From an uncultured Candidatus Saccharibacteria bacterium (GTDB lineage: Bacteria; Patescibacteriota; Minisyncoccia; Phycocordibacterales; SW-6-46-9): a stretch of 64,000 bases of DNA. The notes beneath the pieces were generated by a model. It saw only the letters and a program-made list of their open reading frames with translations. It was not told the DNA's origin and made no database searches. The stretch spans positions 55,560 through 119,559 of the forward strand of contig CAZHOI010000001.1 of the NCBI GenBank assembly GCA_964534365.1, given 5' to 3'. Position 1 is the first letter of the stretch, and the number at the start of each line of letters is the position of its first letter. Of the stretch, positions 2,138 through 52,151 are shown in pieces. A program made the position numbers and the translations under genes.

Positions 2138-2767
2138 TTATTTTATCCAGGTTTTGCGATGCTGATCACACGTTCCATGTTTTCTGATTTGTAATCTGTG
2201 CCACTGCGTGCCGTAGCCAACGTGTTTATCAAAGCCATAGCCAGGAAAGCGTTGATGCACAGTATTCTTCATGTATTTATCCCGTTTCTCTTTAGCATAA
2301 ATACTAGCCAGAGCAATTACCGGGATTGTAGCATCTCCTTTTTTATAACTTTTCCAGTGAATAAAATTATTTGGAATTGGTATACCATAATCCATTAAAA
2401 ATATGGTTTTGGCTGGATCATACTGTTTAACTACTCGGTTCATCATTGTTAGGTAAGATTGCCTAATTCTGATGCGATCAACTACAGCTGCCGATATTCG
2501 TGTTGACCATATTTCTATAGAAATATGGTCTGGAAATGACTTTATATTCGATAGAATCTTTTGCCTAGAGTTTGCGGTAAGTTTTTTTGAATCATCTAGG
2601 TTTTTCATTCGTTCTAGTTCAAGTTCATCTCCTCGTCTTATGGCACAAATTCCTAATACCATCGGCCCAGCGATTGCCCCCCGCCCTACTTCGTCAATCC
2701 CCACCACCCATTTGACCGATTCAGGCAGACGTTTTATTTCGCTCAAAATGTCTTGAGGCCACTTCAT
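2138..2767 (-). CDS. rnhB: Ribonuclease HII
   Basis: VVGIDEVGRGAIAGPMVLG ... LDDSKKL ... catalytic motifs of RNase HII; 209 aa. Confidence 0.9.
   Translation of the reverse strand: MKWPQDILSEIKRLPESVKWVVGIDEVGRGAIAGPMVLGICAIRRGDELELERMKNLDDSKKLTANSRQKILSNIKSFPDHISIEIWSTRISAAVVDRIRIRQSYLTMMNRVVKQYDPAKTIFLMDYGIPIPNNFIHWKSYKKGDATIPVIALASIYAKEKRDKYMKNTVHQRFPGYGFDKHVGYGTQWHRLQIRKHGTCDQHRKTWIK
2505..2530. repeat. Perfect 26-bp palindrome GACCATATTTCTATAGAAATATGGTC inside the rnhB coding sequence (copy 1 of a shared 22-bp core)
   Basis: Self-complementary by inspection. The core CCATATTTCTATAGAAATATGG is identical to the copy at 7961-7982. Both strands translate to HISIEIW, which explains the antisense ORF 2472..2756. 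Confidence 0.85.
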
Positions 2768-2788
2768 TATCCGCTACAATAACATCAA

Positions 2789-5700
2789 ATGGCCATTCAA
2801 CAGCGCGATTTTGTTCACCTGCACACTCATTCGCACTATTCCCTATTGCAGGCCGTACCCAATATTCCTGATTTGGTAGCAGCCGCAAAGTCCGATGGGC
2901 AAAGATCCCTGGCATTAACTGACGCTGGATCAATGTATGGCGCGGTCGAATTCTATCAGGAGGCCAAAAAAAATAATATTAAACCAATCATTGGCGTAGA
3001 TTTTTACGTCGCCACTGGATCACGACAAGATTCAGACACCGAAGAAGACAAACGATTCTACCGTCTAGTATTGCTGGCTAAAAATACTGAAGGCTATAAA
3101 GATTTGATGCGATTGACTAGCCAGGGATTTTTAAGCGGGTTTTATCAACATCCCAGAATCGACCATGACCTGATTTCGAAACATTCCAAACATTTAATAA
3201 CTATTTTACCGGCTAAAACCAGCGAAGTTGCTTGGCACATTGACCGCGGCAATACCAGTAAAGCCCGGCAGGTCCTTGATTTCTATCGGGAAGTCTTTGG
3301 GGATAGCGTTTATCATGAAATAACCCTTCATCCAGAAATAAATGGCCATGATCAGTTGCAGCGAAAGGTTTATTCTTTTGCCAAGGAACACAATCTAGAA
3401 CTGGTGGCCGCTAATGATGTCTATTATTTAAAGCCCGAGGATCGCGAAGTTAGGCGAATCGCCGAAACCATTGCCAGGGGTTACTATCAATTAGAAGCAG
3501 CTAGCGAGGACTATTCGTTTTTGACTACCGAGCAAATTAATAAAAAATTCAAAGACATGCCAGCGGCTATTGATAATACAATCAAAATTGCCGATGCTTG
3601 CAATGTCGAGATTGAGTTAGGTACCTTTTATTTTCCAGATTTTGAATTACCCGAAAACTCTACCGCTCAAAAAGAACTGCGAAAATTATGTTATGGAGGG
3701 TTTAATAGACGCGGATTTGAAACTGATAACCAAGAGGTAATTGATCGTCTAGAATACGAGCTTAAAATAATAAATGACAAAGGATATGACGCCTATTTTT
3801 TGATTGTTCAGGATTTACTGCATTATGCCCACCAAAATGATATTCCCACTACTATTCGTGGGTCAGTGGCTGGATCAATGGTCACCTATTTATCTGGAAT
3901 CACCAATCTAGATCCGCTGTATTACGGATTGCGATTCGAACGATTCCTAAACCCTGATCGACCCTCCGCCCCCGACATTGATATGGATTTTGCTGATAAC
4001 CGCCGGGATGAGGTAATTGAATATACCAGGGAAAAATACGGACATGACAAGGTCGCCCAAATCGGAACCTTTGGCACTATGCTAGCCAGAGGTGTAGTTC
4101 GCGATGTGGCACGGGCCATGTCATTTCCTTATGCTCTAGGAGATCAAATCGCCAAATTAATACCTCCACCTAAACAAGGTTTTCCCATGCCGATTGCCAA
4201 GGCGCTAAAAGAGGTTCCGGAACTGCAGGAGGTATATCAAAACAATCCTTCAGTAAAACAGGTTATTGATATGGGCCAACGACTGGAAGGCAACGCCCGA
4301 CATATCTCGGTTCATGCGGCTGGTGTTGTGATTGCCCCCACCACTCTAAATGACTTTACACCGATTCAACGTGATCCCAAAGGCGGTAAATTGATTACCC
4401 AATATGATATGCACGCCGTTGGCGAGGACGGGGCGGGATTAACCAAATTTGATTTCCTAGGACTAAAGAATCTGGCAATCCTGGCTGATACCGTAAAACG
4501 AATCGAATGGCGACATGATAAAAAAATTGATATCGAATCGATTCCTATTGATGACGAAAATACTTTTCAGATGTTAGCCGAGGGCAAAACCCATGGTACG
4601 TTTCAATTAAATGGATCAGGAATGACCGCATTTTTAAAAGATCTGAAACCAACCGATATATTTGATATTAATGCTATGGTTGCCCTGTATCGACCAGGTC
4701 CAATGGAGTTTATTCCTGAATACATTGCCCGTAAACATAATCCTGAATTAGTTGAATATCCCCATGAAATGTTAAAAGACGCCCTGCAGCAATCATACGG
4801 TCTACTGATATATCAAGAAGATGTTATGTATACCGCAATTCGCCTAGCTGGTTATTCATGGCTGGATGCTGATAAATTTCGAAAAGCGATGGGTAAGAAG
4901 ATCCCTGCCCTGATGGACGAGCAAGAAAAGAAGTTCAAATCAGGTTGTGTTGATAATGGAATTGATCCTAATCTAGCGAATGAATTATGGGAAAGAATCA
5001 AACCATTTGCCGCCTATGCGTTTAATAAATCCCACTCGGCCTCGTATGGTCGGGTTGCCTATCAAACCTCATACTTCAAAGCTAATTATCCAGCTGAATA
5101 CATGGCGGCTGTTTTGACTGCTGATGCTGGTAATACGGACAAGATTGCGGAATCGGTAGCCGAATGCAGCAATATGAATTTGGAAGTCTTGCCCCCTGAT
5201 ATAAATGAATCTTTTGCCAGTTTTACGGTAATTGATCAAGATAATGAAGTTCAGGTCATCCGATTTGGTTTGTATTCAATTAAAAATTTCGGCGAAGGAA
5301 TCGCTGATCAAATTATAGTTGAGCGCAAATCAAATGGTAGATTTAAATCAATTGCCGATTTGATTGAACGAGTTGGTGGAAGAGCTCTTAATCGTAAATC
5401 GCTAGAGGCGCTAATATTTTCCGGAGCTCTTGACAATCTAGAACCAGCACCAAAAACTGACGTGGTTAGGTGGCGGGCGGATTTATTTGGCAACCTTAGT
5501 GATTTGCTATTGCATCATAAACAAGTGCACTCTCAGGCTGATAATCAGGGTTCACTATTTGCTTCGACCGAATTACAATTACCTGAATTTTGCCTTAAAC
5601 GCGACATTGCTACTTTTACCAAAGAAGAAATCCTAAATAATGAAAAAGAGCTGCTGGGTGTTTATATATCCGGTCACCCCTTGGATAAATTTAAACACAA

Positions 5701-6004
5701 GTTGGATAATCGCAATCAAAATATTACTCACATAAAAACTGACGATACTTTTTTGGATCGCCAAGTGAATGTGGTAGGAATATTACAGGACCTCAGGCCC
5801 ATTCAGACTAAAAAATCTAATCGGGCAATGGCTTTTGGCGTAATGGCTGATCTGGATGACATGATAGAAGTAGTATTTTTCCCAGATACCTGGGATGAAT
5901 TAAAAGATAAACTGGAGATTGATTCCGTATACAAAATGGAGGGAAAATTGACCGAGCGCAACAGCGATCGATCAGTGCTAGTAGATCGAATATCAAAGCT
6001 ATAA
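2789..6004 (+). CDS. dnaE: DNA polymerase III alpha subunit
   Basis: PHP-domain start FVHLHTHSHYSLLQA, 1071 aa, polymerase core motifs (GLLKFDFLGLKNL, NKSHSASY). Confidence 0.95.
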   Translation: MAIQQRDFVHLHTHSHYSLLQAVPNIPDLVAAAKSDGQRSLALTDAGSMYGAVEFYQEAKKNNIKPIIGVDFYVATGSRQDSDTEEDKRFYRLVLLAKNTEGYKDLMRLTSQGFLSGFYQHPRIDHDLISKHSKHLITILPAKTSEVAWHIDRGNTSKARQVLDFYREVFGDSVYHEITLHPEINGHDQLQRKVYSFAKEHNLELVAANDVYYLKPEDREVRRIAETIARGYYQLEAASEDYSFLTTEQINKKFKDMPAAIDNTIKIADACNVEIELGTFYFPDFELPENSTAQKELRKLCYGGFNRRGFETDNQEVIDRLEYELKIINDKGYDAYFLIVQDLLHYAHQNDIPTTIRGSVAGSMVTYLSGITNLDPLYYGLRFERFLNPDRPSAPDIDMDFADNRRDEVIEYTREKYGHDKVAQIGTFGTMLARGVVRDVARAMSFPYALGDQIAKLIPPPKQGFPMPIAKALKEVPELQEVYQNNPSVKQVIDMGQRLEGNARHISVHAAGVVIAPTTLNDFTPIQRDPKGGKLITQYDMHAVGEDGAGLTKFDFLGLKNLAILADTVKRIEWRHDKKIDIESIPIDDENTFQMLAEGKTHGTFQLNGSGMTAFLKDLKPTDIFDINAMVALYRPGPMEFIPEYIARKHNPELVEYPHEMLKDALQQSYGLLIYQEDVMYTAIRLAGYSWLDADKFRKAMGKKIPALMDEQEKKFKSGCVDNGIDPNLANELWERIKPFAAYAFNKSHSASYGRVAYQTSYFKANYPAEYMAAVLTADAGNTDKIAESVAECSNMNLEVLPPDINESFASFTVIDQDNEVQVIRFGLYSIKNFGEGIADQIIVERKSNGRFKSIADLIERVGGRALNRKSLEALIFSGALDNLEPAPKTDVVRWRADLFGNLSDLLLHHKQVHSQADNQGSLFASTELQLPEFCLKRDIATFTKEEILNNEKELLGVYISGHPLDKFKHKLDNRNQNITHIKTDDTFLDRQVNVVGILQDLRPIQTKKSNRAMAFGVMADLDDMIEVVFFPDTWDELKDKLEIDSVYKMEGKLTERNSDRSVLVDRISKL

Positions 6005-6081
6005 ATTATAGTTTTTTTAATTCGAGGCAGCTGACATTCAGCTAGCTTTAAACATTTAACTATTAGAGTTAAACTAATCTC

Positions 6082-7920
6082 ATGAAACAAGTTGATTACC
6101 CAGCCGATAAACTTTATAAAATCAGACATTCGCTGACACATTTACTAGCCAAAGCGGTTACCGATTTGTGGCCTGAAGCAAAACCAACCATTGGCCCGCC
6201 GACTGATAATGGATTTTATTATGACTTTGATTTTGCTGCGTCCTCGGAAGCCTCTGGCGAAGGAGGGGCGATTTCCATTTCAAAATCAGATTTAAAAAAG
6301 ATTCAAAAACAAATGCGAAAACTCTTGGGTAAGTGGCAGCAATTTCAAGCAGTAACCGTAACTGCGGATGAAGCCAGAGCTATTTTTGCTGATAATGAGT
6401 ACAAATTAGAACTAATAGATACCATCGAAACAGAAGAATCTGATATTACAATTTACTATTCGGGCCCTGATCTACCGGAACAGCTTTCAATAGAAAACCT
6501 AGCAACTATTCCCAAGGAAGGCTTCATCGATTTGTGTCGTGGTGGTCACGTAGACAGTCCAGCCGCTGAAATTGATCCCAAAGCGTTCAAGCTAGACAGT
6601 TTGGCTGGTGCCTATTGGCGTGGTGATCAGAGCAATCAGCAATTGACAAGAATCTATGGCTTGGCGTTTGAATCCGCAGCTGGATTAGACAAATATTTAA
6701 TGCAACGTGAAGAGGCCAAGAAACGCGATCATCGCAAACTAGGGCAAAAGATGGGACTATTTACATTTTCAGATAAAGTCGGTAAAGGTTTACCAATGTT
6801 TTTACCATCTGGCAATTTAATAAGAGAGATACTTACTAAATATATTACTGATAAAAAAACCGCGTTAGGTTATCAATTTGTTCATATCCCCCACATTGCC
6901 AAGCGCGATCTGTATGAAACATCAGGTCATATGGGAAAATATGATGCCATGATGCCGGTCATGACTGACGAAGATGGCGATGAATACGTTATGAAAGCAA
7001 TGAATTGTCCACATCATTTTGAACTGTATAATTCCCTACCTCACTCGTATCGCGACCTTCCTTTGCGTTACGCTGAGAATACTACCGTATATCGAAATGA
7101 AAAATCAGGCGAGCTCCATGGCCTTACCCGAGTCAAAGCCTTAACCCAGGATGATACCCATCATTTTATTCGTCACAGCCAAATAAAAAGCGAGATAGAA
7201 ATGGTATTAAGTTTGGTAAAAGACGTATACGATTTATTTGACTTTAATTCATACAAAGTAGAAATATCGGTCCGTGATCAAGATAATAAAGACAAGTATT
7301 TTGGTGAAAACAGTATATGGACTAAAACTGAAAGCATCCTGGAAGAATCAGTTAAATTTTGGGGTGCTGACTATACCATCGAAGAAGGTGAAGCCGCTTT
7401 CTATGGTCCTAAAATAGATATTAAGGTCAAGGATTCACTAGGTCGACAATGGCAAGTAGCCACCGTACAGCTAGATTTTATTCAACCTGAGAATTTTGAT
7501 ATGATTTATATCGATGAAAATGGCGATAAACAGCGCCCGGCGGTATTACATGTAGCTGTTTTCGGATCAATCGAGCGGTTTATGGGAATTTTGATCGAGC
7601 ACTATGCCGGTAAATTTCCGTTTTGGCTATCCCCTGAACAGGTCCGTATCCTGCCAATCGCTGAAAACCATATAAACTACGCTAATAAAATAAATGATCA
7701 GCTGATTGAACAAAGCATTCGATCAACCATAATTACCAATGATTCTCTGGGTAAAAGGATTCGAGGTGCTAAAACCGATTTACTGCCATATTTTATAGTA
7801 GTCGGCGATGATGAAGTGAAAAACAATACGGCTACTTTGGAAGGGCGAAATGGTTCCGAGAACTTGACCGTCTCTGACCTGATACACAAGTTAGCTACCG
7901 AAAACACCCCTTCAGTCTAA
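6082..7920 (+). CDS. thrS: Threonyl-tRNA synthetase
   Basis: Class II aaRS motifs with zinc site ...MNCPHHFELY..., HDDTHHF, GPKIDI; 612 aa. Confidence 0.9.
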   Translation: MKQVDYPADKLYKIRHSLTHLLAKAVTDLWPEAKPTIGPPTDNGFYYDFDFAASSEASGEGGAISISKSDLKKIQKQMRKLLGKWQQFQAVTVTADEARAIFADNEYKLELIDTIETEESDITIYYSGPDLPEQLSIENLATIPKEGFIDLCRGGHVDSPAAEIDPKAFKLDSLAGAYWRGDQSNQQLTRIYGLAFESAAGLDKYLMQREEAKKRDHRKLGQKMGLFTFSDKVGKGLPMFLPSGNLIREILTKYITDKKTALGYQFVHIPHIAKRDLYETSGHMGKYDAMMPVMTDEDGDEYVMKAMNCPHHFELYNSLPHSYRDLPLRYAENTTVYRNEKSGELHGLTRVKALTQDDTHHFIRHSQIKSEIEMVLSLVKDVYDLFDFNSYKVEISVRDQDNKDKYFGENSIWTKTESILEESVKFWGADYTIEEGEAAFYGPKIDIKVKDSLGRQWQVATVQLDFIQPENFDMIYIDENGDKQRPAVLHVAVFGSIERFMGILIEHYAGKFPFWLSPEQVRILPIAENHINYANKINDQLIEQSIRSTIITNDSLGKRIRGAKTDLLPYFIVVGDDEVKNNTATLEGRNGSENLTVSDLIHKLATENTPSV

Positions 7921-7957
7921 ATTTTACTAAATTTAATTATACTCACTCGAATTTTCC

Positions 7958-7985
7958 TTACCATATTTCTATAGAAATATGGTAA
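7958..7985. repeat. Perfect 28-bp palindrome TTACCATATTTCTATAGAAATATGGTAA downstream of thrS (copy 2 of the shared 22-bp core)
   Basis: Self-complementary. The 22-bp core is identical to the copy at 2507-2528. Confidence 0.85.
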
Positions 7986-8135
7986 TATATTAATGTCATT
8001 TGAACAATTGTAACTATGTAGCTATCAATTTTCGGATCGGAACTATTTACCTAAGAAAAAACCTCATTCGCGCATGAGGTTTTATTCTGTACGATAATTA
8101 TATCAACTATCGCTACATTGTAATAATTACAATGA

Positions 8136-8523: not shown

Positions 8524-8596
8524 TGGACCTTAGCGGATTTGAACCGCTGACCTCTTGTATGCCATACAAGCGCTCTACCAGCTGAGCTAAAGGCCC
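8524..8596 (-). tRNA. tRNA-Ala (anticodon GGC)
   Basis: Reverse complement GGGCCTTTAGCTCAGCTGGTAGAGCGCTTGTATGGCATACAAGAGGTCAGCGGTTCAAATCCGCTAAGGTCCA folds as a cloverleaf. Anticodon loop is AT-GGC-AT. The G3:U70 alanine identity pair and the GGTTCAAATCC T-loop are present. Confidence 0.85.
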
Positions 8597-8700
8597 TGTT
8601 TACGCTCAGTAGTCCCTTAACTAGGGATTACTGAACTATGGCATAGATTTTACAAAAATCTATTAGCATTAATATACAGACTTTAAATAACTTTTAAAAG

Positions 8701-9728: not shown

Positions 9729-9873
9729 TACTAACTACAAATACACGATAAGTCTATAATTTATTAACATCTAGATATTTCAACAAACTATTGTTATATT
9801 TACGCAAATAGATTTTATAAAATCTATGCCATAGCGAAGCAATTCCGCAATTCGGGATTTCTGAGCGTAACTA

Positions 9874-9947
9874 GGGCCCGTAGCTCATCTGGCTAGAGCG
9901 CCGGTTTTGCATACCGGAGGTGGCAGGTTCGAGTCCTGTCGGGTCCA
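9874..9947 (+). tRNA. tRNA-Ala (anticodon TGC)
   Basis: GGGCCCGTAGCTCATCTGGCTAGAGCGCCGGTTTTGCATACCGGAGGTGGCAGGTTCGAGTCCTGTCGGGTCCA. Anticodon loop is TT-TGC-AT. G3:U70 pair present. Confidence 0.9.
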
Positions 9948-11499: not shown

Positions 11500-12110
11500 A
11501 CACCGAGAAGGGACAGTTGACCAATCCGAGGTCAATGCTCCACTCCGGAGCGTCCTTTCTCATCATCTACCCCCTCTATCCTAATGGCTTCTCAAGCCAA
11601 ACGCTCACGCTCCGCTACTGACCATCGCGTCCTTCGTCAGCAGAGGAAACTGCGTCGAAGGCGTGCCCGACAGCTGATCCGAGAAGGGATCGAGCTGTAC
11701 TTCAGCAAAAACGACACTTCTGCGACCTACTCAAGTGGCGCGTCTTCCGTACTCGTCTACTGCGAGTGTCGCTCGGGCGGGCTGTGCATTGGTGACGAAG
11801 AGTGCAGAGGCGCAGCTGAGCTCATGGCCCTCCAAGGTGAGATGGAGCTCACTGACGTTCTCTTGGAGGACGTCGATGTCGATCTCTACATTCTCGCCAC
11901 CGAAGACACCGAGCTCGATCATGCCTAAAGGAAAGGCTCGATCGCAGCTCAAGCGGAGCAAAAAGCTCAGGAAGCGCAAACGACGCGAAGCCGCGCAACG
12001 CTCTGCTAGTCATAACAAAAAGCGCTGATCCCACCAGCTGAGGGTCGGAGGTCAATTGCGTCTAACGCGATGCCTCCGGCCCTTGGCGGCCCTCCCTCCC
12101 TAGGAATAAA
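11500..12110. other. About 0.6 kb GC-rich compositional island between uvrC and uvrA
   Basis: Abrupt GC rise. Multiple overlapping ORFs on both strands typical of GC-rich DNA. Stable hairpin cggaggtca...tgcctccg near 12040-12075. Confidence 0.5.
11584..11928 (+). CDS. Hypothetical protein in GC-rich island, followed by an overlapping 35-aa highly basic peptide (11921..12028)
   Basis: 114-aa ORF with an Arg-rich N-terminus and acidic C-terminus. Downstream ATG at 11921 gives MPKGKARSQLKRSKKLRKRKRREAAQRSASHNKKR. No recognisable family; coding status uncertain. Confidence 0.25.
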   Translation: MASQAKRSRSATDHRVLRQQRKLRRRRARQLIREGIELYFSKNDTSATYSSGASSVLVYCECRSGGLCIGDEECRGAAELMALQGEMELTDVLLEDVDVDLYILATEDTELDHA

Positions 12111-12141: not shown

Positions 12142-14793
12142 TTATTTTTTTGCTTTGATTTTCCGTGATTTAGATTTGGAAAGCATTTTGGACAAGTATT
12201 TACCGGTATAACTACCATCAGTATCTGCCACTTCCTCGGGAGTCCCAGTGGCAATTACCTGGCCGCCGTTTTTACCACCTTCCGGCCCCATATCAATTAC
12301 GTAATCAGCGCATTTAATCAAATCAAGGTTGTGCTCGATCACAACTACCGTATTACCCTGCTGGACTAGCTTGTCCAAAATTTGAATTAGTTTTCGAACG
12401 TCTTCGTAATGTAATCCAACCGTAGGCTCGTCAAGTAAATAGATAGTTTTTTCAGTATGACGACGATATAACTCGGACGATATTTTTATTCGCTGGGCTT
12501 CCCCACCAGATAGTGTTGTAGCCGACTGACCTAGCTTCAAATAACCCAATCCGGTTTGATCCAATACACGCAGGCGATCATGAATTGCCGGAATATCATT
12601 AAAGAATTCAAGGGCTTCTTCGATAGTCATTTCTAATACATCGTAGATATTTTTATTCTTATAGGTCACTTCTAATGTTTCGGATTGGTAGCGCTTTCCT
12701 CCACATACATCACACGGTACATAAACTGTCGGTAAAAAATGCATTTCAATTGCTTGAACCCCTTTTCCTTGACACGCTTCACATCTTCCGCCTTTGACAT
12801 TAAATGAAAATCGGCCAACAGACCAACCACGCACCTTGGCTTCACTAGTTGAGGCAAATAAATCGCGAATGTGATTGAAAGCACCCGTATAGGTAGCTGG
12901 ATTTGATCGACTAGTTCGACCAATTGGAGATTGATCAATTGTGACCATCCGTGACATATATTCCGAACCACTAAACTTTGCTGCGTTAATGACTTCGGTA
13001 GATTTATCACGACGATCAAGCGAACGCTTTAAATTTTTCTCGACCACGTCATAAAGCATGGTAGATTTTCCTGACCCTGATACCCCAGTGACACAAACAA
13101 ATCGGCCCAACGGAATTTCTAGATTGACATTCTCTAGGTTATGTTTATTAGCTCCAACCACTTTAATTGCGCCTTTGGTAGAACTACGACGTTTGTCAGG
13201 GATAGGTATTTCAACTTCACCCCGTAAGTAAGATAATGTAAGTGAATCTGAAGTATTAGTTTCAGCGTCCATTAGTTTGTTCAAGTCATCAGCCACAATA
13301 ACTTCTCCACCATGTCGTCCGGCACCAGGTCCGATATCAATCAAATAGTCGGCGGCCGCAATGGTGTCTTCATCGTGCTCAACCACTAAAATTGTATTAC
13401 CCAAATCTCGTAGATCCAGCAGAGTTTTAATTAACCGATCGTTATCGCGTTGATGCAGGCCAATGGTTGGTTCGTCCAAAACATATAATGCACCTACCAG
13501 TTTAGACCCCAATTGTGATGCCAGTCTAATTCGTTGAGCCTCGCCGCCAGATAAGGTATTAGCCCTACGATCCAGGGTTAAGTATTCAATGCCGACATTC
13601 GACATAAATTTCAGACGTTCTTCGATTTCTCGCAAAATAGGTTCAGCAATTTCTGCGTTTTTTTCATTTAGTTTCAGACCTATCAACCATTCTTCGGCGT
13701 CTTCGACCGACATCGCCACAAAATCCGCGATGTTTGATCGACCGCCTTTTTCGTGATGCAGGAATACGTATAGCGCTTCTTCGCGCAATCTGGCACCCCC
13801 ACAGGTAGCACAAGGTTCTGTTCCCTTGAAGTGTTTGGTTCCTAAACCACGGCAAATTGGACACGCACCATATGGTGAATTGAATGAGAACAACCTTGGT
13901 TCGACCTCAGGAAACGAGTACCCTGAATAAGGGTCGGTAAAGCTAGTCGAGAACAACGAACCATATCGGGCCTGTTCCGGTCCTTTTTCATCATCTGACA
14001 GCTCTTCACCTTCCCGGGCTGTGCGTTGGGGCATTTCGTCACCGGGAAATACTACCCGCACTAACCCATCTGCTTCGTTCAATGCGTTTTCGATTGCTTC
14101 GGACAGTCGTTCTTCAGCAAATTTTTGGTCAGAATGAAATTCTGACACATCTACTGCGTCGATAAATAAATCAATATTATGAGTTTTTTTCTTGTCGAGG
14201 ATAATTTGGTCGCGCAGAGACTGCTCGTGACCATCAATCAACACGTTCGAATAGCCTTTACCCAACAGGTCATATAGCATTTGATAATATTCACCCTTAC
14301 GACCCCTTACGATCGGAGCATATATTTTTACCAAGCCGTCATCTTTGTTATCCAGCTGGGTGATTTTATCAATAATGATATTTTTGATTTCCTCGTTAGT
14401 CAGTCTAACTATTGGTTCACCAGACACGGGTGAATAAGGCGTCCCTACCCTGGCATATAGAACCCGCAAATAGTCATAAATTTCTGTAATCGTGGCTACA
14501 GTTGATCGGGGATTTCGAGAGCCGGTTTTTTGATCAATCGATATCGCTGGTGATAGTCCAGTAATTTCGTCCACATCAGGTTTTTGCATTTGATCCAAAA
14601 ATTGCCGGGCATATGATGACAGTGATTCAACATAACGACGTTGACCTTCGGCAAATATAGTATCAAAGGCCAGTGATGATTTGCCAGAACCAGATAGACC
14701 GGTAACAACTACCATTTTGTTTCGTGGCATCTCGACTGAAATATTTTTTAAATTGTGAGTGCGTGCCCCGGTTACTTTGATTTTATCTTCCAT
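12142..14793 (-). CDS. uvrA: Excinuclease ABC subunit A
   Basis: Tandem ABC ATPase with two Walker A sites ([12 protein letters not shown]; [10 protein letters not shown]), zinc-finger cysteines, LSGGEAQR signatures; 883 aa. Confidence 0.95.
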
Positions 14794-23082: not shown

Positions 23083-24633
23083 TTATCGATTAACGAGATC
23101 CGAAACCTTTAAGGGTCTAGGATGATTGATGTTTCGAATGCGTTTATAAGCGTTCTGTCCGGATATGGCAGCAATTGACGTGCCGATACCAGGATTGGTT
23201 CCCGCACCACAAAAATACAAATTGGAGATGTTTTTGTGAACGTTATTGGGACGAAATACGGTTGATTGCATCATGGTATGCGCCAATCCCAACCCAGTTC
23301 CCTGCGGGGCGTGATAGCGAGCTTTGAAATCGGAATAGGTAAAAACCCTTTCGAATTCAATTCTTTTTTTAAAATTCTCTATACCCATTTCAGCTTCGAT
23401 CAACTGATAAATTCTATCTTTAAACTCTTCCTTAAATTCGGGCGTCATCGATAATCCAGGAGCCACAGGACATAATATGTATAGATTCTCCTTGCCCGGC
23501 GGTGCCACATCGGGATCGGTTTTCGAAGTAACACATACATAAAAAGACGGGTCTTCTGGCCAAATTCGCTCTGTAAAAATTTCCGAAAATCCTTTTTCCC
23601 AATCTTTTTGAAATCGAAAATTATGATGGATTAATTCAGGGACATCGCCATCTATACCTAGATAGATTAGGAATGCACTAGGGGCATAAACTCGTTTGTC
23701 CCAGTACTTATCAGAATATTGCTGATATTTTTTCGGTAGTAATTGCTGGTCAGTCCAAGTGATATCAGCGTTCGAGATTACATTTTTGGCCTGGATCACT
23801 TCCCCATTAATTAGTCGTACTCCAGTAGCCTGGTGGTTTTTAATCAAGATTTCCCCTACTTCGCTGTTAACAAGATATTTAGCGCCATAACTTTCTCCAA
23901 TTTTTTTATATAGTTTTATTAGCTCGTAGTAACCACCTTGTGGGTAGTACACTCCACCAGCAAAATCTATGTGATTCATCAACGTGTAGAGCGCGGGGGT
24001 GTTTTTTGGGTCTGAACCAATAAAAATCAAAACGTACTCTAGAATCTTGATTAGTTCTGGGGAATTAAATTCCCGCTTTACAACAGAATGAACTGATTTT
24101 ACTAAATCGCTCAGATTACCCAGGTTTTTACCACGATTGACTAGGTCGCGGTTGAAAAAGTCGCCAAGACCCTGATAATTTCGGTACATAAATAAATCAT
24201 AACCAAGCTGATATTTTTCTTTTGCTTCTTCAAGCCAGGTTTTTAATTTATTACTTGATCCTGGTTCCAGTTCTTCAAATAGTTCATATATTCGGTTCAG
24301 ATCACCACTAGGGACATCGATAAATTCTCGATCTGATCCAGCGTCAAATACTCGATAAGCAGGGTCAAGCGGTACCAAATTCAGTTCATTATGTATATCA
24401 ACATCAAACAACTTAAAAGTTTGTTCCCATACATCCAATTGCATAAACCAACTAGGCCCCATGTCAAAAAAATACCCGTCAGTTTCAAAATAACTAGCCC
24501 GACCGCCAACATGGTCATTTTTCTCGAGCACTAAAACCGAATCCCCATTACGAGCCAGTAAATTGGCCAAAGTTAATCCGGCGATACCTGAACCAATAAT
24601 TAAGTGATCATAGACTAGTTTATAATCGGTCAT
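23083..24633 (-). CDS. crtI: Phytoene desaturase family protein (CrtI/CrtN-like)
   Basis: FAD-binding N-terminus HLIIGSGIAGLTLANLLARNGDSVLVLEKNDHVGGRA; 516 aa; typical CrtI-family length and C-terminal region. Confidence 0.8.
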   Translation of the reverse strand: MTDYKLVYDHLIIGSGIAGLTLANLLARNGDSVLVLEKNDHVGGRASYFETDGYFFDMGPSWFMQLDVWEQTFKLFDVDIHNELNLVPLDPAYRVFDAGSDREFIDVPSGDLNRIYELFEELEPGSSNKLKTWLEEAKEKYQLGYDLFMYRNYQGLGDFFNRDLVNRGKNLGNLSDLVKSVHSVVKREFNSPELIKILEYVLIFIGSDPKNTPALYTLMNHIDFAGGVYYPQGGYYELIKLYKKIGESYGAKYLVNSEVGEILIKNHQATGVRLINGEVIQAKNVISNADITWTDQQLLPKKYQQYSDKYWDKRVYAPSAFLIYLGIDGDVPELIHHNFRFQKDWEKGFSEIFTERIWPEDPSFYVCVTSKTDPDVAPPGKENLYILCPVAPGLSMTPEFKEEFKDRIYQLIEAEMGIENFKKRIEFERVFTYSDFKARYHAPQGTGLGLAHTMMQSTVFRPNNVHKNISNLYFCGAGTNPGIGTSIAAISGQNAYKRIRNINHPRPLKVSDLVNR

Positions 24634-25504
24634 ATTTGCGGTTGTAATACCAAACGTTTTTCATGGTTTTGATTTTTTCCAGCTTGGCAGGTTCAAATTG
24701 CGGTGCGGTAAAAACATCATAATCATTCCTCTCTATTTGACCTAGAATATCCTCGTATATTTCGGCCGCCATTCTGATTGGCAATCGTGACGAATGTGGC
24801 AAGAAATTAATATACGGTATCGCCTCTTCATACCACGTATGAGCAATTTCTATATAGTATTTGATTAATGCCCTAATATTTTCAGTGGTTCTCAGTTCAA
24901 GCAAATCCTCCTCGTTAACACCAAACTTTTTCATATCCTCATTAGCCAAATAGATACGATTACGAATTGTAATATCCTCGCGCACGTCACGTATGAAATT
25001 TGTTAACTGCATTGCATCACCTAATAATTTGGCGCCCCGCAATGTTTCGTCACCGCCTCGATACCCAACAATATGCGAGACTATCAACCCGATGACCGAA
25101 GCTGATCCATACATATAATCTTTTAATTCAGCAAATGTTTCATATCGGGGTTTCTCTAAATCTTGAGCCATCGCGGCTAAAAAATCCTCGGAATAGGAAA
25201 AAGGAATATTATATCGTTGCCACACATGTGCCGCTGCTCGCAGAACTGGCGAATCAGATGGCTGACCCTGATACGTATCAATCCAATCTTGTGCCCATTG
25301 CCCTAGTTTTAAAATAGGTTTTTCTACAGTTGGATCATCTACAATTTGATCAGAAACTCTGACAAAAGCATAAATTATCCATATTGCTTTGCGAATTTCG
25401 CGCGGGTAAAATCTTGAGGCATTGTAATAATTAAAACTATACTGTTTGACTATATTACGACAATATTCGACATCTTGATCTTTAAATTCGCTAATAAAAT
25501 CCAT
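24620..25504 (-). CDS. crtB: Phytoene/squalene (dehydrosqualene) synthase (CrtB/CrtM-like)
   Basis: Trans-isoprenyl diphosphate synthase head-to-head family: YAFVRVSDQIVDD (DxxxD) and a second aspartate-rich region; 294 aa. Overlaps crtI by 14 nt. Confidence 0.8.
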   Translation of the reverse strand: MDFISEFKDQDVEYCRNIVKQYSFNYYNASRFYPREIRKAIWIIYAFVRVSDQIVDDPTVEKPILKLGQWAQDWIDTYQGQPSDSPVLRAAAHVWQRYNIPFSYSEDFLAAMAQDLEKPRYETFAELKDYMYGSASVIGLIVSHIVGYRGGDETLRGAKLLGDAMQLTNFIRDVREDITIRNRIYLANEDMKKFGVNEEDLLELRTTENIRALIKYYIEIAHTWYEEAIPYINFLPHSSRLPIRMAAEIYEDILGQIERNDYDVFTAPQFEPAKLEKIKTMKNVWYYNRKYDRL

Positions 25505-25615
25505 TTGAAATAGTATAACAATTATTTTGTTTAATTAGGTAGTTTTTATTGATTTGCAGATAACTAGTACTAGAACTAATTTATTGACCGTTACTAAATG
25601 ATGAATTTGTCATAA

Positions 25616-27169
25616 TCAAGTGTGGCGACACAAAATTTCGTTTTTATCGTTCGCAGAATAATAAGGCTGCAATTTTGTCAGTCGCGATAATTCTGCTGTA
25701 GCCAAAGCCAATTTTTGGTCCAAGCCAGACATTCGATCCAAGTGTGATGTGGTACGTGACATACGAGCGTTTTGTTCCATAAAATCTCGATGCAGGTGCA
25801 TAAATCGCCAGTACATCGCATCCCATTTGGCTGACCAATGATCAGGATCACTTTGATCACGGCGATAATTGCTCATCTTGGCAATATAATTCGAGCTAGA
25901 GATATATGGTTTGGTAGCCATGATTCCTCCATCTGCAAATAGTCCCATTGAATAAACATTTGGCACCATCACCCAATCATAGGCATCTATAAACATTTCC
26001 ATAAACCACCCGTACACGTGATCTGGATCAAATTCTGCCAAAACACAAAAATTAGCAACTATCATCAAACGCTCAATATGATGAGTATAGGCAGTTTTTC
26101 TAACTTTTTTTATTACTTGATCAATTGGTTTAATTCCAATCTTCTCGCCATTCCAAAAATTAATTGGTAGTGGTTGAGAATGTTTGAAAAAGTTTTTATT
26201 CCTCATCTCAACCCCGCGGTGTAAATACAACCCGTGCATAAATTCGCGCCAACCAATCAATTGCCTAATAAACCCCTCGACTGAATTGATCGGTATATTA
26301 TTTGTTTCCGCATATTGTAGAGATCGATTAATAACATATTTTACTTCTAATAATCCGGTGTTGATTAATGGCGACAAGGCTGAATGAAATAAAATAGATT
26401 CTGATTCCTTTTGAATCGCATCTTCATAAGGGCCAAAATCTTGAAATCGGTTACTAAGGAATTCTTCAAACCAATTAATAGCTGCAACATGATCGGCTGG
26501 AAACCAAAACTGATCAGCTTGACCTGGATGATCCGAGAATTCAGCCCTTACATAATTTATCGCTTGCTTGACGTATTCGCTAGAATTTGATTTTGGATTG
26601 TTGGGCAAAATTATATTTTTGGGTAGAGGTTTACGATTAAGTTGATCGTAATTCCATTGATTACCAACAGGCTGATTATCATCAGTCATTAAAAACCCGC
26701 GCTTAATTCGTTCACTGCGGTACCAGCTCTCCATTCGGAAATTCTTGACGTCTCGATTGAAATAATCTGCTAGTTCTGACCTAGTATTCAAGAATAATGG
26801 AGATTCAAGCCATTTAAAGTTGCAATGATTATCACTTTTAACCCAGGCGTTAATTCTTCTTTCAAGTAAATAATCAGATGGATAATAGGCTTTTATATCA
26901 GTGTACCCAGCCTTTATAGCCTGGTCGAGTACGGTGATACTATTATCCAGTTCACTATGATTTAAATAGCGAACCTGATAGGTTCCATAATCATTCAATT
27001 TGTCATACAAGGCCTTCATAGACGCTCGATGTAAAACTAGTTTTTGCTGATGATATTTAAAATGAGAGAAAAATAAAGGCTCCTCGACAAACCAAATAGC
27101 CGACACTCCCTGGTAATGCCGTTTATCAAAAAATACTGAATTTGGATAAACCAGATGCAGCGTTGACAT
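25616..27169 (-). CDS. Cryptochrome/photolyase-family protein of the FeS-BCP / (6-4) photolyase-related (COG3046) type
   Basis: C-terminal FAD-binding photolyase helical domain (WREFMHGLY, FMEMFIDAYDWVMVPNVY...MATKPYISSSNYI). ORF track start 27217 overlaps cls; the Met at 27169 (MSTLHLVYPNS...) is the more likely start. Confidence 0.7.
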   Translation of the reverse strand: MSTLHLVYPNSVFFDKRHYQGVSAIWFVEEPLFFSHFKYHQQKLVLHRASMKALYDKLNDYGTYQVRYLNHSELDNSITVLDQAIKAGYTDIKAYYPSDYLLERRINAWVKSDNHCNFKWLESPLFLNTRSELADYFNRDVKNFRMESWYRSERIKRGFLMTDDNQPVGNQWNYDQLNRKPLPKNIILPNNPKSNSSEYVKQAINYVRAEFSDHPGQADQFWFPADHVAAINWFEEFLSNRFQDFGPYEDAIQKESESILFHSALSPLINTGLLEVKYVINRSLQYAETNNIPINSVEGFIRQLIGWREFMHGLYLHRGVEMRNKNFFKHSQPLPINFWNGEKIGIKPIDQVIKKVRKTAYTHHIERLMIVANFCVLAEFDPDHVYGWFMEMFIDAYDWVMVPNVYSMGLFADGGIMATKPYISSSNYIAKMSNYRRDQSDPDHWSAKWDAMYWRFMHLHRDFMEQNARMSRTTSHLDRMSGLDQKLALATAELSRLTKLQPYYSANDKNEILCRHT

Positions 27170-27171
27170 AT

Positions 27172-28260
27172 TTAGGTAATGAACACTAAAATCCGACCCA
27201 GGAATCGCTGCCACCAAGACGGGCGAACATCTTGCAGCATCTCTTCATCAACATAATAATAATCACCCCCCAACCATCGATTCACTTGTGAATTTATTAA
27301 CTCGACTTTGGAACCTTCTTCAAAGTCAATATTAAGTTCGTGATTAAATACCAGGCTAAGGTAATCAAGGTTGGTAGAACCAAAACTGGCCCAATTATCA
27401 GCCGTAACAATTTTGGCGTGGTTCATATGATCGGTGAAATAGATTTTGAGTCCCAGGGGTTGAAGCTGTTTTAAATACCACCACCGAGCCCAATCAGCCA
27501 AGCCATGATCGGTTTGTTTAGGAGTCAGTAATTTTATCTCTAATCCATCCTTTAATTTTTCTTTTAATACTCGATACAAACGAAGCGGAGGGGTAAAATA
27601 TGGTGTAACTAAGCATACTTTATTTTTGGCTACTAAAATATGTTCTGATATTTGCTCATAAACATGTCGATTACCAATACCTGGCGAGTTACCAACCAGC
27701 CTAATTTCAGGTGATAATTTGGAAAACGGTGCAATAGACCTTTTTCCGGTGACCAAGCGTTCATGCTGTTTAATTAATTCAGAATGCAGCTCTTCTCCAA
27801 ACTGATTTGAATCAATCCGCCAGTTATAATCTTGCCAATCACGAAACTCTTCTTTCATTACCGTACCACCAATCCAGCTAATTTGCTGATCAATTAATAG
27901 AACTTTGCGGTGATTCCTTACAAAAAAACGGATTGGAGTAGTGGCATTTCGCAACGGAATAGTTTGATAAAAATTCAGCTCTACTCCACTGTTTCGGAGC
28001 CGCTTTTTCAAACCTTTATTTTTCAACAAAGAAATACTGCCTACCGCGTCCAGATTAAGCGCCACATCTACTCCCTTTTCGGCCGCGGCGATAAATGCCT
28101 TCACAAATTCTAAACCAATTTGACCTTCACTAAATGACAAGAAAATAAATTGCTCGAACACTATTGATTTATTGGCTGCATTAATATCATCAAGCATTTT
28201 TTGCCAAGTTTCTTCAGCAAGATTAAAAACTTTTATTTGTGAATTAAGTAACTCGGACAT
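27172..28260 (-). CDS. cls: Phospholipase D-family protein (cardiolipin synthase-like)
   Basis: Two HKD motifs: HRKVLLID and HAKIVTADNWASFGSTNLD; 362 aa. Confidence 0.8.
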   Translation of the reverse strand: MSELLNSQIKVFNLAEETWQKMLDDINAANKSIVFEQFIFLSFSEGQIGLEFVKAFIAAAEKGVDVALNLDAVGSISLLKNKGLKKRLRNSGVELNFYQTIPLRNATTPIRFFVRNHRKVLLIDQQISWIGGTVMKEEFRDWQDYNWRIDSNQFGEELHSELIKQHERLVTGKRSIAPFSKLSPEIRLVGNSPGIGNRHVYEQISEHILVAKNKVCLVTPYFTPPLRLYRVLKEKLKDGLEIKLLTPKQTDHGLADWARWWYLKQLQPLGLKIYFTDHMNHAKIVTADNWASFGSTNLDYLSLVFNHELNIDFEEGSKVELINSQVNRWLGGDYYYVDEEMLQDVRPSWWQRFLGRILVFIT

Positions 28261-43893: not shown

Positions 43894-43914
43894 TGGTGAC
43901 CCTACGGGGAATCG
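43894..43914. repeat. attL-like direct repeat: 21-bp copy of the tRNA-Glu 3' end (TGGTGACCCTACGGGGAATCG)
   Basis: Identical to 56866-56886, which is the 3' end of the intact tRNA-Glu; flanking sequence diverges immediately on both sides. Confidence 0.8.
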
Positions 43915-44236
43915 GTGTCAGCTCACTAATTCGCTAGGCTCATAAGTGGCTCCTACCCGGTCTCGAAAGCTGGGCTTTCTCCGACTTTTGATTATTACCA
44001 CTGGTAATTCACTTAAAACTAAAACAGCTTCAGATAAACTGAAACTGTTGTTAGCTTTTGTGAGCCTATAGCAGGTAGAACTTATTGTTCACCTTGTCAG
44101 GTAAGGCTATTTTAGCACCAAAACATAGATCATATACAACCCTTCAACAGCCCTAGTAAAAAGTGACAAAAGTTACACATATCGCGCTTGTGTCACAAAG
44201 TTACACAGCCCTGTAACAAACGAGTCTTTTTGCCAA

Positions 44237-47200
44237 TTATTTTTTAGCCTTACGAACAGTTCCTTTGACCACTTTCTTGACAGCAGTCTTTTTAGCGACA
44301 GCTTCCTTGGACTTATTTGTTGAGGTAGCTGGAATGTACTTTGTACAGTCAAGAGAAATCGCTGAGACACCATCTATCTTCATGAATGTATACTTAACAG
44401 TATCAAGTGTTTTTAGTTCTTCATTTACAATAATAAGAAAAATCCCGTGGGATGCACCATATCCATCCATGTACCTCTGTAAACTTTTGTATGATTTTGA
44501 TTCTTCAACTTTTCGTCCTCTGATGTCTTTGTTTGAAGTTAATTTTATTTCAACAATAACTGGACCTACAAATCCATATCGAATGATGAGATCCACACGT
44601 TTGTCGTCGAGTAAATCAGGTTCTCTTAAAACTTCAGATTCTATACCTCTTTTGAGAAGCGCATTTTCAATCTGAGTCGTTATTGTTTTTTGTATTAGCT
44701 TTTCGTATTCTTGCTTTTTAGAATCAAGAACTCTACCACCCAGTATCAATTCATAAGCACCTTCTCCTTCAATCCACTTTCGTAAGTCAGAGTCAAAAAC
44801 ATCTTGCAGCTCTCTAGTCAAATCAGCTGATGTTGTTATGCGTGAGTCTACATACTTTCGAGCAGCATTGTATCTCCGTATAGCCTCAGCATATCGAATT
44901 GGTTTTCCTATAGCGTTCAGATAAGCAAGTCGTAGCTTCACAATGTGTCCAGCAAGCCAATTTGCACCTTTCTTCTTTGTACCAATTGCTGCAATTTTTT
45001 CCTCTAAAATCTTTAATGGCTTATAGTCACCAAATTCTTTCAGGTTTTCAAAGTAGGCAAATGTAATCTCCCATAGGTATTGAGCATATGAACGATGGTT
45101 CTCTCCCATGGCCCAAACCTCCAGTGCTCTGTCCAATAATAATAAGTATTCATCTTCGAAACCTTGGTATTTCAAGTCCATAAGTGGCTTTGCAAACTCT
45201 TTACCAAATCGAATTTCATCCTCCATAGGTGTGACAGTATGTGCAAATCTTGACCTTCGTCTCGTCGGGGTAGCTGCCACTCTTGATTTAACTTGATCTA
45301 GCCTCCAATTAACAGCATCACGATTAGCATGTTTAGTGATAAGAAGTGAATTGGCTGCAATAGCAATCTCTCTTTCATCTTCCTGAGTACTCTCTTTGTA
45401 CATTCCAAACACACTCATTAAATAGTTTTCGTCTGAATGTAGGGTTTCTGAAACATTTAGTGCCTTAATTCGGTCTCGTGAGCGAAAGTCGCTTTGATGA
45501 ATAAAGTCTTTTAAAATAGGCAACGCCTTGGTCAGACTGTATTGTTCAACTGAGTCGACAAACGCATCAGGTTGCCATTTCCATAAATCATTATCTCTAG
45601 AAGAATAAATCTCAACTACTGGATCAAGTTCTTCCTCAGTAAAATCAGGAATCAGTTCAAATACCGTTTGTAGCTGTTCGGTGTGAGCAAAAGGTATGAA
45701 CTTAGCGATGTTAGATCTATAAGGGGTGATTTCTATCTTTCTAAGCTGAGCTGATTTTAGAGCATCTCCAAATATTATTGCTGCGCCACTAGCAGTATAG
45801 TTGCGACTTGCACCATCGTCAGTTTCTGAGTTTATGGTGAGGCCGTGTGAAGAAGGATCATGTCGCAAAGCTTCCTGTATTATCAAAGTATCAAATCGAT
45901 ATTTGTCATCGGAACTCATAAGTTTTTCAAGCTTTTCTGCATTTGAGTTGTAATCGTAAAACACTCGATTCATGTACATGTTTTCTGCTGGACAAAGAGA
46001 AGTTTTGAATGCCTCTAAAATCCGATCATCGTTAGCATCATCATGATTTACTTGCTGTTGACTCCTTGCTTCTTCATATTCCTGATATAAGGTTGGCAAT
46101 TTACTTCTACCTGCTTCGTATATCAATTCTGCGTCTTGACCACCCTTTAGTTTAATGCGCGTAAGTGTATGCATTACAACATTTTGCTGTTCGTCAGCAG
46201 CCAACATTGCATCTATAAAGGTTGCAACATCTTCTACTCTCAATAAATCTTCAAAGAAGTCCTGAGCAAAATATAATCCGTGGGCACCTTCCTCATCGCT
46301 GTTGAGCTGATTAATAAGTACAACAAAGAAGTCATCATTTTTATCTCGCAATAACTTCATTATTCCTCTTACAAAAGTCGATTTGCCTCTAGTAGAAGAT
46401 ACGGAGTAGTGGACGGATTTAACAATTGCTTGAAATAACAAATCTTGCATCTCATCGTCAAAACCGTCTTTGATATGATCAACGATTTTCAAGTCTTTAT
46501 CCTTAAAAATTGAAGTATCGTCTAAAAATTCTTTACGGAACTGCTCATCTTCAATATATATTTGCAAGAATTTTTTAATTGCTTGTGGCTCGGTGATTTC
46601 ATATATGCCGTACCGTCCGTGTAAATCATTAGCTCTAATCAGCTTTACAAACGCATTAATACTCCTGTCACTATTAGGATCAAGTGAAGTGCATAGTGAA
46701 ACATACTCGCGCATCACGAGTTCATCAGGAGTGTCTGTGATGTCAGGAAGATCATTAACAATAGTTTTATCACCAAACTCAGCTAGAGCGTACAATGCAT
46801 GTCGAGGCAAAACACCATTCTCATACGCATCTGATGAGTAACTTATTAGTTTTTCCCTCCAGTATTCTTTATCGATTGATACTTTTGATTTCAATAAATA
46901 TGCCAAAATATATGACACGTTTCCTAAGGGTACATAATATTTTGTTGAATCTTTCTGTTCTGTTTCAGCTTTCTCAACAATCTGCTTAAGGAACTTTTCG
47001 AGATCTGAACTAAAGAAAGCAGGTAGTGCCGATGTTAGCTGTCCAGGTATCCACTGAAGCCTATTGTTGTGATAATTTATTACGTCTTTAAACAATCTTT
47101 TTTTAACTTCTAGAGGAGTAAGACTTGGATTAATCCTGCCCAAAAAATTAATAAAAGATTCGTCAACAATTTTGAATGCTGTTCCGCTTATTCCAGAAAA

Positions 47201-48340: not shown

Positions 48341-48349
48341 GTATGCAAG

Positions 48350-48380
48350 TATACTAAAATCCCATGTTTTATACTAAAAT
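48350..48380. promoter_or_regulatory. Divergent promoter/operator region with 11-bp direct repeat TATACTAAAAT x2 (20-bp spacing)
   Basis: The 49-bp gap between the NTPase gene (minus) and the 146-aa gene (plus) contains tatactaaaat at 48350-48360 and 48370-48380. Confidence 0.45.
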
Positions 48381-48389
48381 AAGCTTGTT

Positions 48390-48830
48390 ATGGACATTAA
48401 ACTCTTTGATTTAGAACTCAATCAAGTCAATCCAGCTGATATGGATAAAAATGTTAAGTACGAAGTACTTCGTATCACTGATATAAACCTGCACGGTAAC
48501 CAAAAGCGCCCGACCCAGAACCAAGGCAAGAAAATTGTAAAAGCACTCGAACGATCTGAACCAGTCAGAACCTACCATAAACATAAAAATATTACCCAGG
48601 TAGACGAGAATACCATCACGTCAACACTAGATATGCTGGGTTTTTTGCATAATGATCCGCACTTTGATGCGTATATTAAAAAAGCTCAAGCAGCTGGTAA
48701 AGAAGTGCTGCTCGCATTCCCAGCAGACGGCGTACCCATCTTTCTTGGTAAAGATGCTGCTGAATTTATGGAGGGTACACCTGCTTATAGAAAAACTAGG
48801 TTTGCACAAAAGAAAGACAATGATGTATAA
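48390..48830 (+). CDS. Hypothetical 146-aa protein divergently transcribed from the NTPase-nuclease
   Basis: No recognisable motifs; mixed-charge soluble protein. Position suggests a partner or regulator of the neighbouring gene. Confidence 0.45.
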   Translation: MDIKLFDLELNQVNPADMDKNVKYEVLRITDINLHGNQKRPTQNQGKKIVKALERSEPVRTYHKHKNITQVDENTITSTLDMLGFLHNDPHFDAYIKKAQAAGKEVLLAFPADGVPIFLGKDAAEFMEGTPAYRKTRFAQKKDNDV

Positions 48831-48905
48831 TTGGGGCATCAATCAATAGATTGCTTGTGTACAAAAGCAAGTAGTGTATCGTCTCACGACCATGCCTATT
48901 TCGCA

Positions 48906-48977
48906 CAAGAAATAGTTAACCAATTCGGTTCTGCTATTTCGTGTGTGAGATAGGTATTTTCTATTTCATGCATTTTA
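48906..48977. promoter_or_regulatory. Three CTATTTC boxes (one perfect palindrome CTATTTCGCACAAGAAATAG) upstream of the ParB-methyltransferase operon
   Basis: ctatttcgcacaagaaatag (48906-48925), ctatttcgtgtgtgagatag (48944-48963, imperfect inverted), ctatttc (48971-48977). Confidence 0.45.
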
Positions 48978-48997
48978 TAACTTAAACAAGTTTTAAA

Positions 48998-52083: not shown

Positions 52084-52151
52084 CGAGTATGTGACGCTTT
52101 TAATACCCTGCATAGCTATGCAGGGTATTTTGGTCTGTCATTAATATAGAT

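Follow-up and report, generated by a model that had tools for sequence, protein, structure and literature searches.

The window analysed here, a 64,000-nt stretch of contig CAZHOI010000001.1 from an uncultured Candidatus Saccharibacteria bacterium, carries near its start three genes and a palindrome that occurs twice. The gene rnhB (RNase HII, 209 residues, PF01351; exact protein P0001) lies on the minus strand at 2138-2767. Divergently from it, on the plus strand, run dnaE (DNA polymerase III alpha, 1071 residues) at 2789-6004 and then thrS (threonyl-tRNA synthetase, 612 residues) at 6082-7920. One palindrome, GACCATATTTCTATAGAAATATGGTC, is a perfect 26-bp dyad at 2505-2530, inside codons D80-S88 of rnhB; the other, TTACCATATTTCTATAGAAATATGGTAA, is a perfect 28-bp dyad at 7958-7985 in the spacer 3' of thrS. 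Both are spacerless and without strand, and the 5.4 kb that separates them holds dnaE and thrS. They share the 22-mer CCATATTTCTATAGAAATATGG (2507-2528 and 7961-7982), which has no other match in the 64 kb with up to 3 mismatches (0.00 expected), and they are identical over the 24 bp of ACCATATTTCTATAGAAATATGGT (2506-2529 and 7960-7983). In 20 shuffles of the window the longest palindrome was at most 18 bp. Beyond the shared core, the symmetry is built from different bases, G..C in the rnhB copy and TT..AA in the thrS-spacer copy; we estimate the chance of both copies extending their symmetry with different bases at about 0.02-0.03. Two statements of a sequence-only reading of this DNA are thereby borne out, namely that a 22-mer duplicated about 5.4 kb apart is not chance, and that different flanks extend its copies to 26 and 28 bp of perfect dyad.

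Three JGI samples and one Logan run supplied four contigs, all of which have the rnhB copy. L001 and L002, the two that reach the thrS spacer, have the second copy too and match the window at 100% identity over 12,767 and 9,227 nt, respectively. The pair is hence not an assembly artefact, and an artefact, which the sequence-only reading had named as grounds for refutation, is rejected. The duplicated palindrome is thus confirmed as real, neither chance nor assembly error. It is an unusual but small feature, and its novelty is that of a variant of known conserved coding inverted repeats.

Within rnhB, the palindrome occupies nt 238-263 of the open reading frame (ORF) and encodes D80-H-I-S-I-E-I-W-S88, so that the peptide HISIEIW had been read correctly from the sequence. 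HISIEIW aligns gap-free with the orthologue beta-strand that precedes the catalytic Asp, where relatives have HYFIKLW, DSIELWS or NISIILK, and deletion of the 24 bp from rnhB would remove this whole core beta-strand. Since the match to the orthologue strand is residue for residue, with no extra residues, the rnhB copy is not an insertion. Comparison with rnhB orthologues, which had been put forward as a check, shows the strand to be uninterrupted and finds imperfect palindromes at the same spot in relatives. What the gene contains is a perfect inverted repeat in an intact ORF with both arms homologous to orthologues; the rnhB palindrome is homologous, native coding sequence. As for the earlier remark that a copy inside an essential ORF is unusual, a perfect palindrome in coding sequence is indeed unusual, but the word essential is to be corrected, as the gene for RNase HII is generally not essential.

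Promoter-like hexamers are found in the divergent rnhB/dnaE region at 2753-2780 on the plus strand and at 2795-2766 on the minus strand, and the palindrome lies about 230 bp from the nearest of them. A role as a promoter element is ruled out by this position of the nearest hexamers, at 2753-2795. The start codons of rnhB and dnaE are only 21 bp apart (2767-2789), and 5 bp apart in the sister species (L098, 5805-5811); at such proximity, each promoter must sit within the coding sequence of the other gene.

Dyad symmetry recurs at the same place in related rnhB genes. When the arms are set to 13 bp, 6 of 8 clade orthologues have the best dyad centre of their entire gene at the palindrome spot, where it takes either of two registers 8 nt apart: the centre precedes the catalytic-Asp codon by 38 nt in the window and L009, and by 30 nt in L013, L014, L012 and L016. 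L009 (ATTTTATAAAAT) and L015 (ATTCTATAGAAT) have the same centre as the window, and L015 holds a 12-bp perfect palindrome on that 38-nt centre; L012 and L016, centred 8 nt downstream, form 14 of 16 and 12 of 13 pairs, respectively, and the palindrome of L012 is the only strong one in 13.9 kb. Set against synonymous-codon shuffles, the dyad has P=0.003 in the window, P<0.0005 in L012 and P=0.001 in L016. The dyad at the rnhB spot is conserved in the clade at the DNA level, beyond codon expectation, with weak or no symmetry at the spot in L013, L014 and L017. It does not extend to RNase HII genes in general, as only 5 of 74 distant rnhB genes have their best dyad here, with 2.2 expected.

When seven elements are aligned on their centres, 83.5% of the cells are paired, a figure to be read with the caveat that the centres were chosen by symmetry. 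Changes on both sides are seen in 7 of 13 pairs, and the covariation score is 0.399 against 0.174 in shuffles, none of 500 being as high, again on centres picked by symmetry. Both encoded residues differ as a result of several of the two-sided changes; in L009, for example, C:G becomes T:A and S..E becomes F..K. The arms of the window differ greatly in their likeness to those of the sister L013, with 3 of 13 positions shared in the right arm, 8 of 10 in the left arm and 65% in the rest of the gene; relative to L013, the substitutions form a cluster in one arm that matches the complement of the other arm. The same right arm shares only 3-5 of 13 positions with the nearest relatives, against 58-65% gene-wide, and is closer to the more distant L009 and L015 (9-10 of 13).

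On a well-supported DnaE tree, species of one register are interspersed with those of the other (window 38, L098 30, L009 38, L012 30). In a frame-free alignment, palindrome falls over palindrome, with an 8-nt indel just past it; the window's element, translated in the frame of the other register, reads TIFL*KYG, where L012 has TIVLEKYS. From these alignments, it seems that the same DNA element is read in two frames in different species.

Between the thrS stop codon (7918-7920) and the spacer copy there are 37 nt, and a further 72 nt separate the end of this copy from a bidirectional terminator-type hairpin, AAAACCTCATTCGCGCATGAGGTTTT, which lies without strand at 8058-8083 between the convergent thrS and an 88-residue ORF. 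All relatives keep this hairpin after thrS, and it marks the spacer's ancestral end. From stop codon to terminator the spacer measures 137 nt in the window (7921-8057, plus strand) and about 15-33 nt in L104, L105, L009 and L017; the window's spacer is lineage-specific, and the palindrome is the only part of it with a match elsewhere in the window. In the sister species (L098, L102 and L103), whose DnaE and ThrS are 83% and 76% identical to those of the window, the spacer is about 76 nt long and holds a different palindrome, ATAGATTTTGC-N7-GCAAAATCTAT. The window's palindrome is absent from the sister species both at rnhB and in the thrS spacer, and the intergenic copy is lineage-specific. An RNA model of it shows a stem of 11-12 bp closed by the loop UAUA. 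It is not an intrinsic terminator: a terminator scan lists none at 7958-7985, and the sequence downstream is aatatattaatg, with no T-run.

Two further observations touch the same region. The window's three tRNA genes are each preceded, at a distance of about 45 nt, by another palindromic motif, GCnAATAGATTT-N4-6-AAATCTATGCC (8643-8663, 9808-9827 and 56985-57006), which has these 3 matches in the window, with 0.00 expected; in the sister species L098 it is found at 11813-11841, in the thrS stop-terminator slot, which is the slot of the window's 28-bp palindrome. L098 also carries genes for a large serine recombinase and AbiEii at 12625-14154, immediately beyond the small ORF downstream of thrS, where the window has tRNA-Ala and Zip genes.

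The search for further copies covered about 72 kb of this genome, that is, the 64-kb window and an extra 7.9 kb reached through L001. No further copy is present in the extra 7.9 kb, and the window holds no further degenerate variant of the forms ATTTC..GAAAT, TATTTC-N4-GAAATA or CCATAT..ATATGG. One-mismatch half-sites in the window number 4 beyond the palindromes' own 4, with 2.1 expected for all matches, and there is no excess of half-sites. The partial half-site that had been pointed out near 636 does exist (636-647, 12 of 12 matching), but stands at chance level, with a blastn E of 5.3. No exact copy was found in one genome per GTDB species or in viral contigs, and phage and plasmid records gave no match below E = 0.1. 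A metagenome scan with the 2-nt centre left free returned four unrelated sequences only, all with other centres, and the relatives' loci contain the rnhB site and no further one. A second contig scan, with the rnhB alignment, yielded only relatives of at most 40% identity, and hence the clade is not among the species representatives. In these 72 kb there is thus no exact or degenerate extra copy, the public collections searched hold none, and nothing speaks for a dispersed family.

The extent of the shared unit was assessed by aligning the 60-nt flanks of both copies in four orientations. Their similarity is at chance level (P = 0.52-0.98); as the flanks have no significant similarity, the shared unit stops at the palindrome. 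A relic of an rnhB fragment after thrS was rejected on the same alignments, the rest of the 137-nt spacer matching nothing in the window. An inverted reading pairs the flank CTGGAAA (2531-2536, no strand) with TTTCCTT (7953-7959, no strand) and lengthens the match to 31 nt, 29 of them identical, which is weak evidence: by a binomial estimate the extension has a probability of about 0.03 for one flank and about 0.1 for four, and is not significant after correction. The cores themselves differ at 0 of 24 positions, which, together with their absence from the sister species, points to either a recent event or maintenance.

We favour, at a probability of roughly 40%, a mutational origin, in which a hairpin-prone coding palindrome has been kept symmetric by arm-to-arm template switching and has undergone one recent short-patch copying. 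The palindrome would be native to the rnhB coding sequence of a small Patescibacteria-like clade; a change in one arm would be reverted, or copied to the other arm, by intrastrand template switching during replication, and the symmetry of the DNA would thus be kept while the encoded beta-strand varies within tolerable limits. In the window's lineage, such arm correction would have yielded the perfect 26-bp version. A single, recent short-patch copying would then have placed the 24-bp core in the expanded thrS spacer, probably as an inter-locus template switch with entry and exit points set by the hairpin, after which the spacer copy would have grown independently to its 28 bp of perfect symmetry. 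Different flanking bases in the extension of each copy are what is expected if symmetry is generated locally. We infer that template switching is the mechanism of both maintenance and copying and that the copy went from rnhB to the spacer; the element probably has no dedicated function, or, at most, the intergenic copy would serve the thrS mRNA as a 3' stem-loop.

There are precedents for parts of this scheme. Template switching has been reported to correct imperfect inverted repeats preferentially to perfect ones, which accounts for their apparent conservation (Lavi et al. 2018, PMC5941160). Like those repeats, the element described here has imperfect orthologous versions at its site, arms that change in concert and perfect symmetry in single lineages, and it requires no trans-acting element. 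Unlike them, it has no spacer, encodes a beta-strand, occurs in two registers in different frames and has an exact second copy 5.4 kb away, for which arm-to-arm correction alone is insufficient. Coding palindromes are numerous in the mitochondrial genes of Nematomorpha, where they reach 284 bp (Mikhailov et al. 2019, PMC6649704); there too, a perfect inverted repeat sits in a functional gene and both of its arms encode conserved protein, whereas the present case is a single one of 26 bp, in a bacterial gene and with a non-coding twin. Should the mutational reading be true, a coding hairpin site can hold its symmetry over long divergence, reshape a core strand of a protein and seed an exact copy elsewhere, with consequences for the interpretation of clustered substitutions and 'compensatory' amino-acid changes in bacterial genes.

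Several points weigh against it. No template-switch event was seen directly, and a 5.4-kb inter-locus switch exceeds the short-range events that are usually described. Arm-to-arm correction predicts no conservation of sequence, and yet, over the two reading frames, 53 of 56 cells retain the half-site core AGAA; likewise, matrices built from one register rank the site of the other 1 of 21,756, 1 of 2,715 and 3 of 13,889. Pair 7 lacks pairing in 5 of 7 species, with no instance of its being 'corrected', and the interleaving of the registers calls for repeated remodelling or short-patch recombination. Finally, as only about 72 kb of the genome were searched, a dispersed family may still exist.

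A binding site for a homodimeric protein is the alternative that fares best, and we regard it as possible, though on the unlikely side. The palindrome would be an operator, a transcriptional roadblock or a centromere-like site of the ParB/Noc type, embedded in rnhB throughout the clade, with a second, ideal site after thrS, the two bracketing dnaE-thrS. The sequence-only reading had suggested a dimeric DNA-binding-protein site, and to this the clade-conserved dyad in rnhB, kept at one spot in 6 of 8 species, lends some support. The half-site consensus is (G/T)AGAAn(T/A)A, its AGAA conserved as noted despite being read in two frames, and the unpaired position that 5 of the 7 dyads have in common would suit a spacer position without protein contact. 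Matrices made from one register place the site of the other at rank 1-3 in three loci out of four (2.7-22 kb); in the fourth locus, L014, the site ranks 4 of 1,629, and in the opposite direction that of L009 ranks only 58 of 19,232. Under a matrix made from the four species of the 30-nt register, none of 63,974 positions in the window scores above the intergenic copy, and a relatives-only matrix scores this copy, which is under no coding constraint, at 26.0 bits and the coding copy at 18.0. On the other hand, the cross-register score of 17.8 bits is close to the shuffle maximum of 19.6, and T-rich followed by A-rich DNA is to be expected where a hydrophobic strand precedes a polar turn. No binding protein, regulon or further site was found to go with the dyad: there is no regulator gene near either copy and no third or degenerate site in the 64 kb. 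The distance of about 230 bp to the nearest promoter-like hexamers and the weak or absent symmetry in L013, L014 and L017 also count against a protein site, and the 24/24 identity of the copies demands a copying event regardless.

The resemblance to the sites of ParB and Noc was considered separately. The consensus sites are TGTTTCAC-GTGAAACA for parS and TATTTCCC-GGGAAATA for the Noc site (NBS) (PMC7383237). The palindrome shares with them a spacerless, AT-rich dyad of the form TnTTTCnn|nnGAAAnA, agreeing with NBS at 12 of 16 positions and with parS at 10 of 16; its core, TATTTC-TATA-GAAATA, stands against TATTTC-CCGG-GAAATA in the Noc site (PMC7383237). The central four bases differ, including the specificity-setting position and a C that is conserved in both consensuses, and the copies are identical over 24 bp, which is beyond the need of a 16-bp site. 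Moreover, a likeness to NBS is common to AT-rich GAAA motifs, and an ad hoc CodY-like half-site does equally well (P=0.0015 vs 0.0013). Sites of the parS kind commonly lie inside genes and in few identical copies. Across 1.33 Mb of loci no site is within 2 mismatches of parS, and none in this clade is within 2 of NBS. No match to a ParB-like family was found among the scanned ORFs of the 64-kb window, which included all those of at least 110 residues from 12 kb onwards, and none is listed in the relatives' loci; the window contains neither dnaA nor a replication origin, and its local guanine-cytosine (GC) skew is uninformative. In its fullest form, with a clade-specific, possibly ParB/Noc-like homodimer bound over rnhB, a DNA constraint that re-frames the protein (HISIEIW versus TIVLEKY) and a second ideal site bracketing dnaE-thrS, we consider the proposal doubtful. 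If true, it would mean an undescribed DNA-binding system in a poorly known Patescibacteria-like lineage and a rare case of a DNA element overriding the reading frame of its host gene.

An action at the level of RNA appears improbable. Under this proposal, the copies would form hairpins, one a pause or processing stem-loop in the rnhB mRNA and the other a 3' stabiliser of the thrS mRNA, or would pair with each other across a long dnaE-thrS transcript in the manner of an rRNA processing stalk. Both copies do fold stably, the surrounding stretches having z = -3.7 and -2.7, and the gene for RNase III is not far off; a different hairpin occupies the thrS 3' slot of the sister species, but in four relatives this slot is without one. 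For pairing between the copies, there is the inverted complementarity of 31 nt (29/31) on their inner sides, although, as stated above, the flank extension is not significant. There is no promoter-like site upstream of 2505 on the plus strand. The mismatches of the relatives' dyads, read by hand, mix G:T and A:C types without strand bias, and hence neither transcript is favoured. Nor is the palindrome a member of a known RNA family, as Rfam 15 gives only sub-threshold chance matches.

A miniature mobile palindromic element of the REP/RAYT, RPE or PARCEL kind, landed both in rnhB and after thrS, is very improbable. Such an element would explain why the duplicated unit coincides with the palindrome and why the intergenic copy lies within extra DNA that relatives lack; this copy is also preceded by TTAC, which we take to be the target of IS608. 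As with REP/RAYT and the Rickettsia RPE, a short palindromic repeat has one genic and one extragenic copy. Here, however, the rnhB palindrome encodes a homologous beta-strand and is no insertion relative to orthologues, relatives hold homologous, imperfect versions in place, and the palindrome occurs just twice in about 72 kb, the public collections searched containing no copy. The GTAG/CGTC tag of the REP type is absent, the flanks being gttG|ACCAT and cctT|ACCAT, and the ORFs of the window include no Y1 transposase, RAYT or homing endonuclease. The duplicated palindrome is not a mobile element, and the suggestion of a miniature mobile or homing sequence is not supported.

Least probable of all is a pair of recombinase sites, hix-like (12+2+12, fitting the 26 bp) or single-Xer dif-like (11+6+11, fitting the 28 bp), by which the 5.4-kb dnaE-thrS segment would be inverted or excised and rnhB switched off: the lengths and arm/centre layout resemble those of hix sites of Hin-type invertases and of dif, two sites do flank a segment, inversion would by our reading of the sequence end rnhB at ...HISIEIW-stop, and a large serine recombinase gene is present at 52152-53447, but this gene, the only one found for a recombinase, is 44 kb away in a tRNA-Glu island with 21-bp repeats of its own, the core is perfectly symmetric, one site lies inside a conserved gene and the flanked segment holds two housekeeping genes. 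A fully palindromic recombination core gives no polarity. For the further suggestion of a recombination hotspot there is no evidence either: relatives that lack the repeat (L009, L017 and L098) share the gene order of the window, L001 and L002 span both copies and are colinear with the window, and two shorter contigs, which carry the rnhB copy only, are unbroken at it, with no sign of rearrangement.

The island just mentioned, at 43894-56887, is probably integrated, and its boundaries are formed by a 21-bp direct repeat identical to the 3' end of tRNA-Glu. Its genes encode a STAND-like NTPase (1367 residues), an N6/N4 DNA methylase, an HTH protein and the large serine recombinase, together with a weak terminase-like ORF and three genes of the AHSA1 family. 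It also holds a 28-bp perfect palindrome of its own, AATACCCTGCATAGCTATGCAGGGTATT, at 52102-52129, 22 nt upstream of the recombinase gene; this has the same length as the 28-bp palindrome of the thrS spacer and an unrelated sequence. A direct repeat of 23 nt (22/23) is found in the island at 48996-49018, at the start of the methylase gene, and at 55596-55618, within an AHSA1-family gene. Between the region upstream of tRNA-Glu and a penicillin-binding-protein gene, the heptamer AATACCA is repeated in tandem in about 8 units (57076-57131).

Elsewhere in the window, two tRNA-Ala genes (GGC and UGC anticodons) form, with their upstream regions, 80-nt inverted arms that are 76% complementary (8578-8657 and 9813-9892) and surround the Zip-family transporter gene. 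The region 23083-27217 contains phytoene-synthase-like, amine-oxidase/phytoene-desaturase-like and photolyase-related genes, a set unusual for Patescibacteria, the group of the nearest named homologues. In the last part of the window (60000-64000), GC content climbs from about 0.40 to 0.48-0.54, and two long ORFs that overlap on opposite strands there (61390-62649 and 61531-62619) have no Pfam match.

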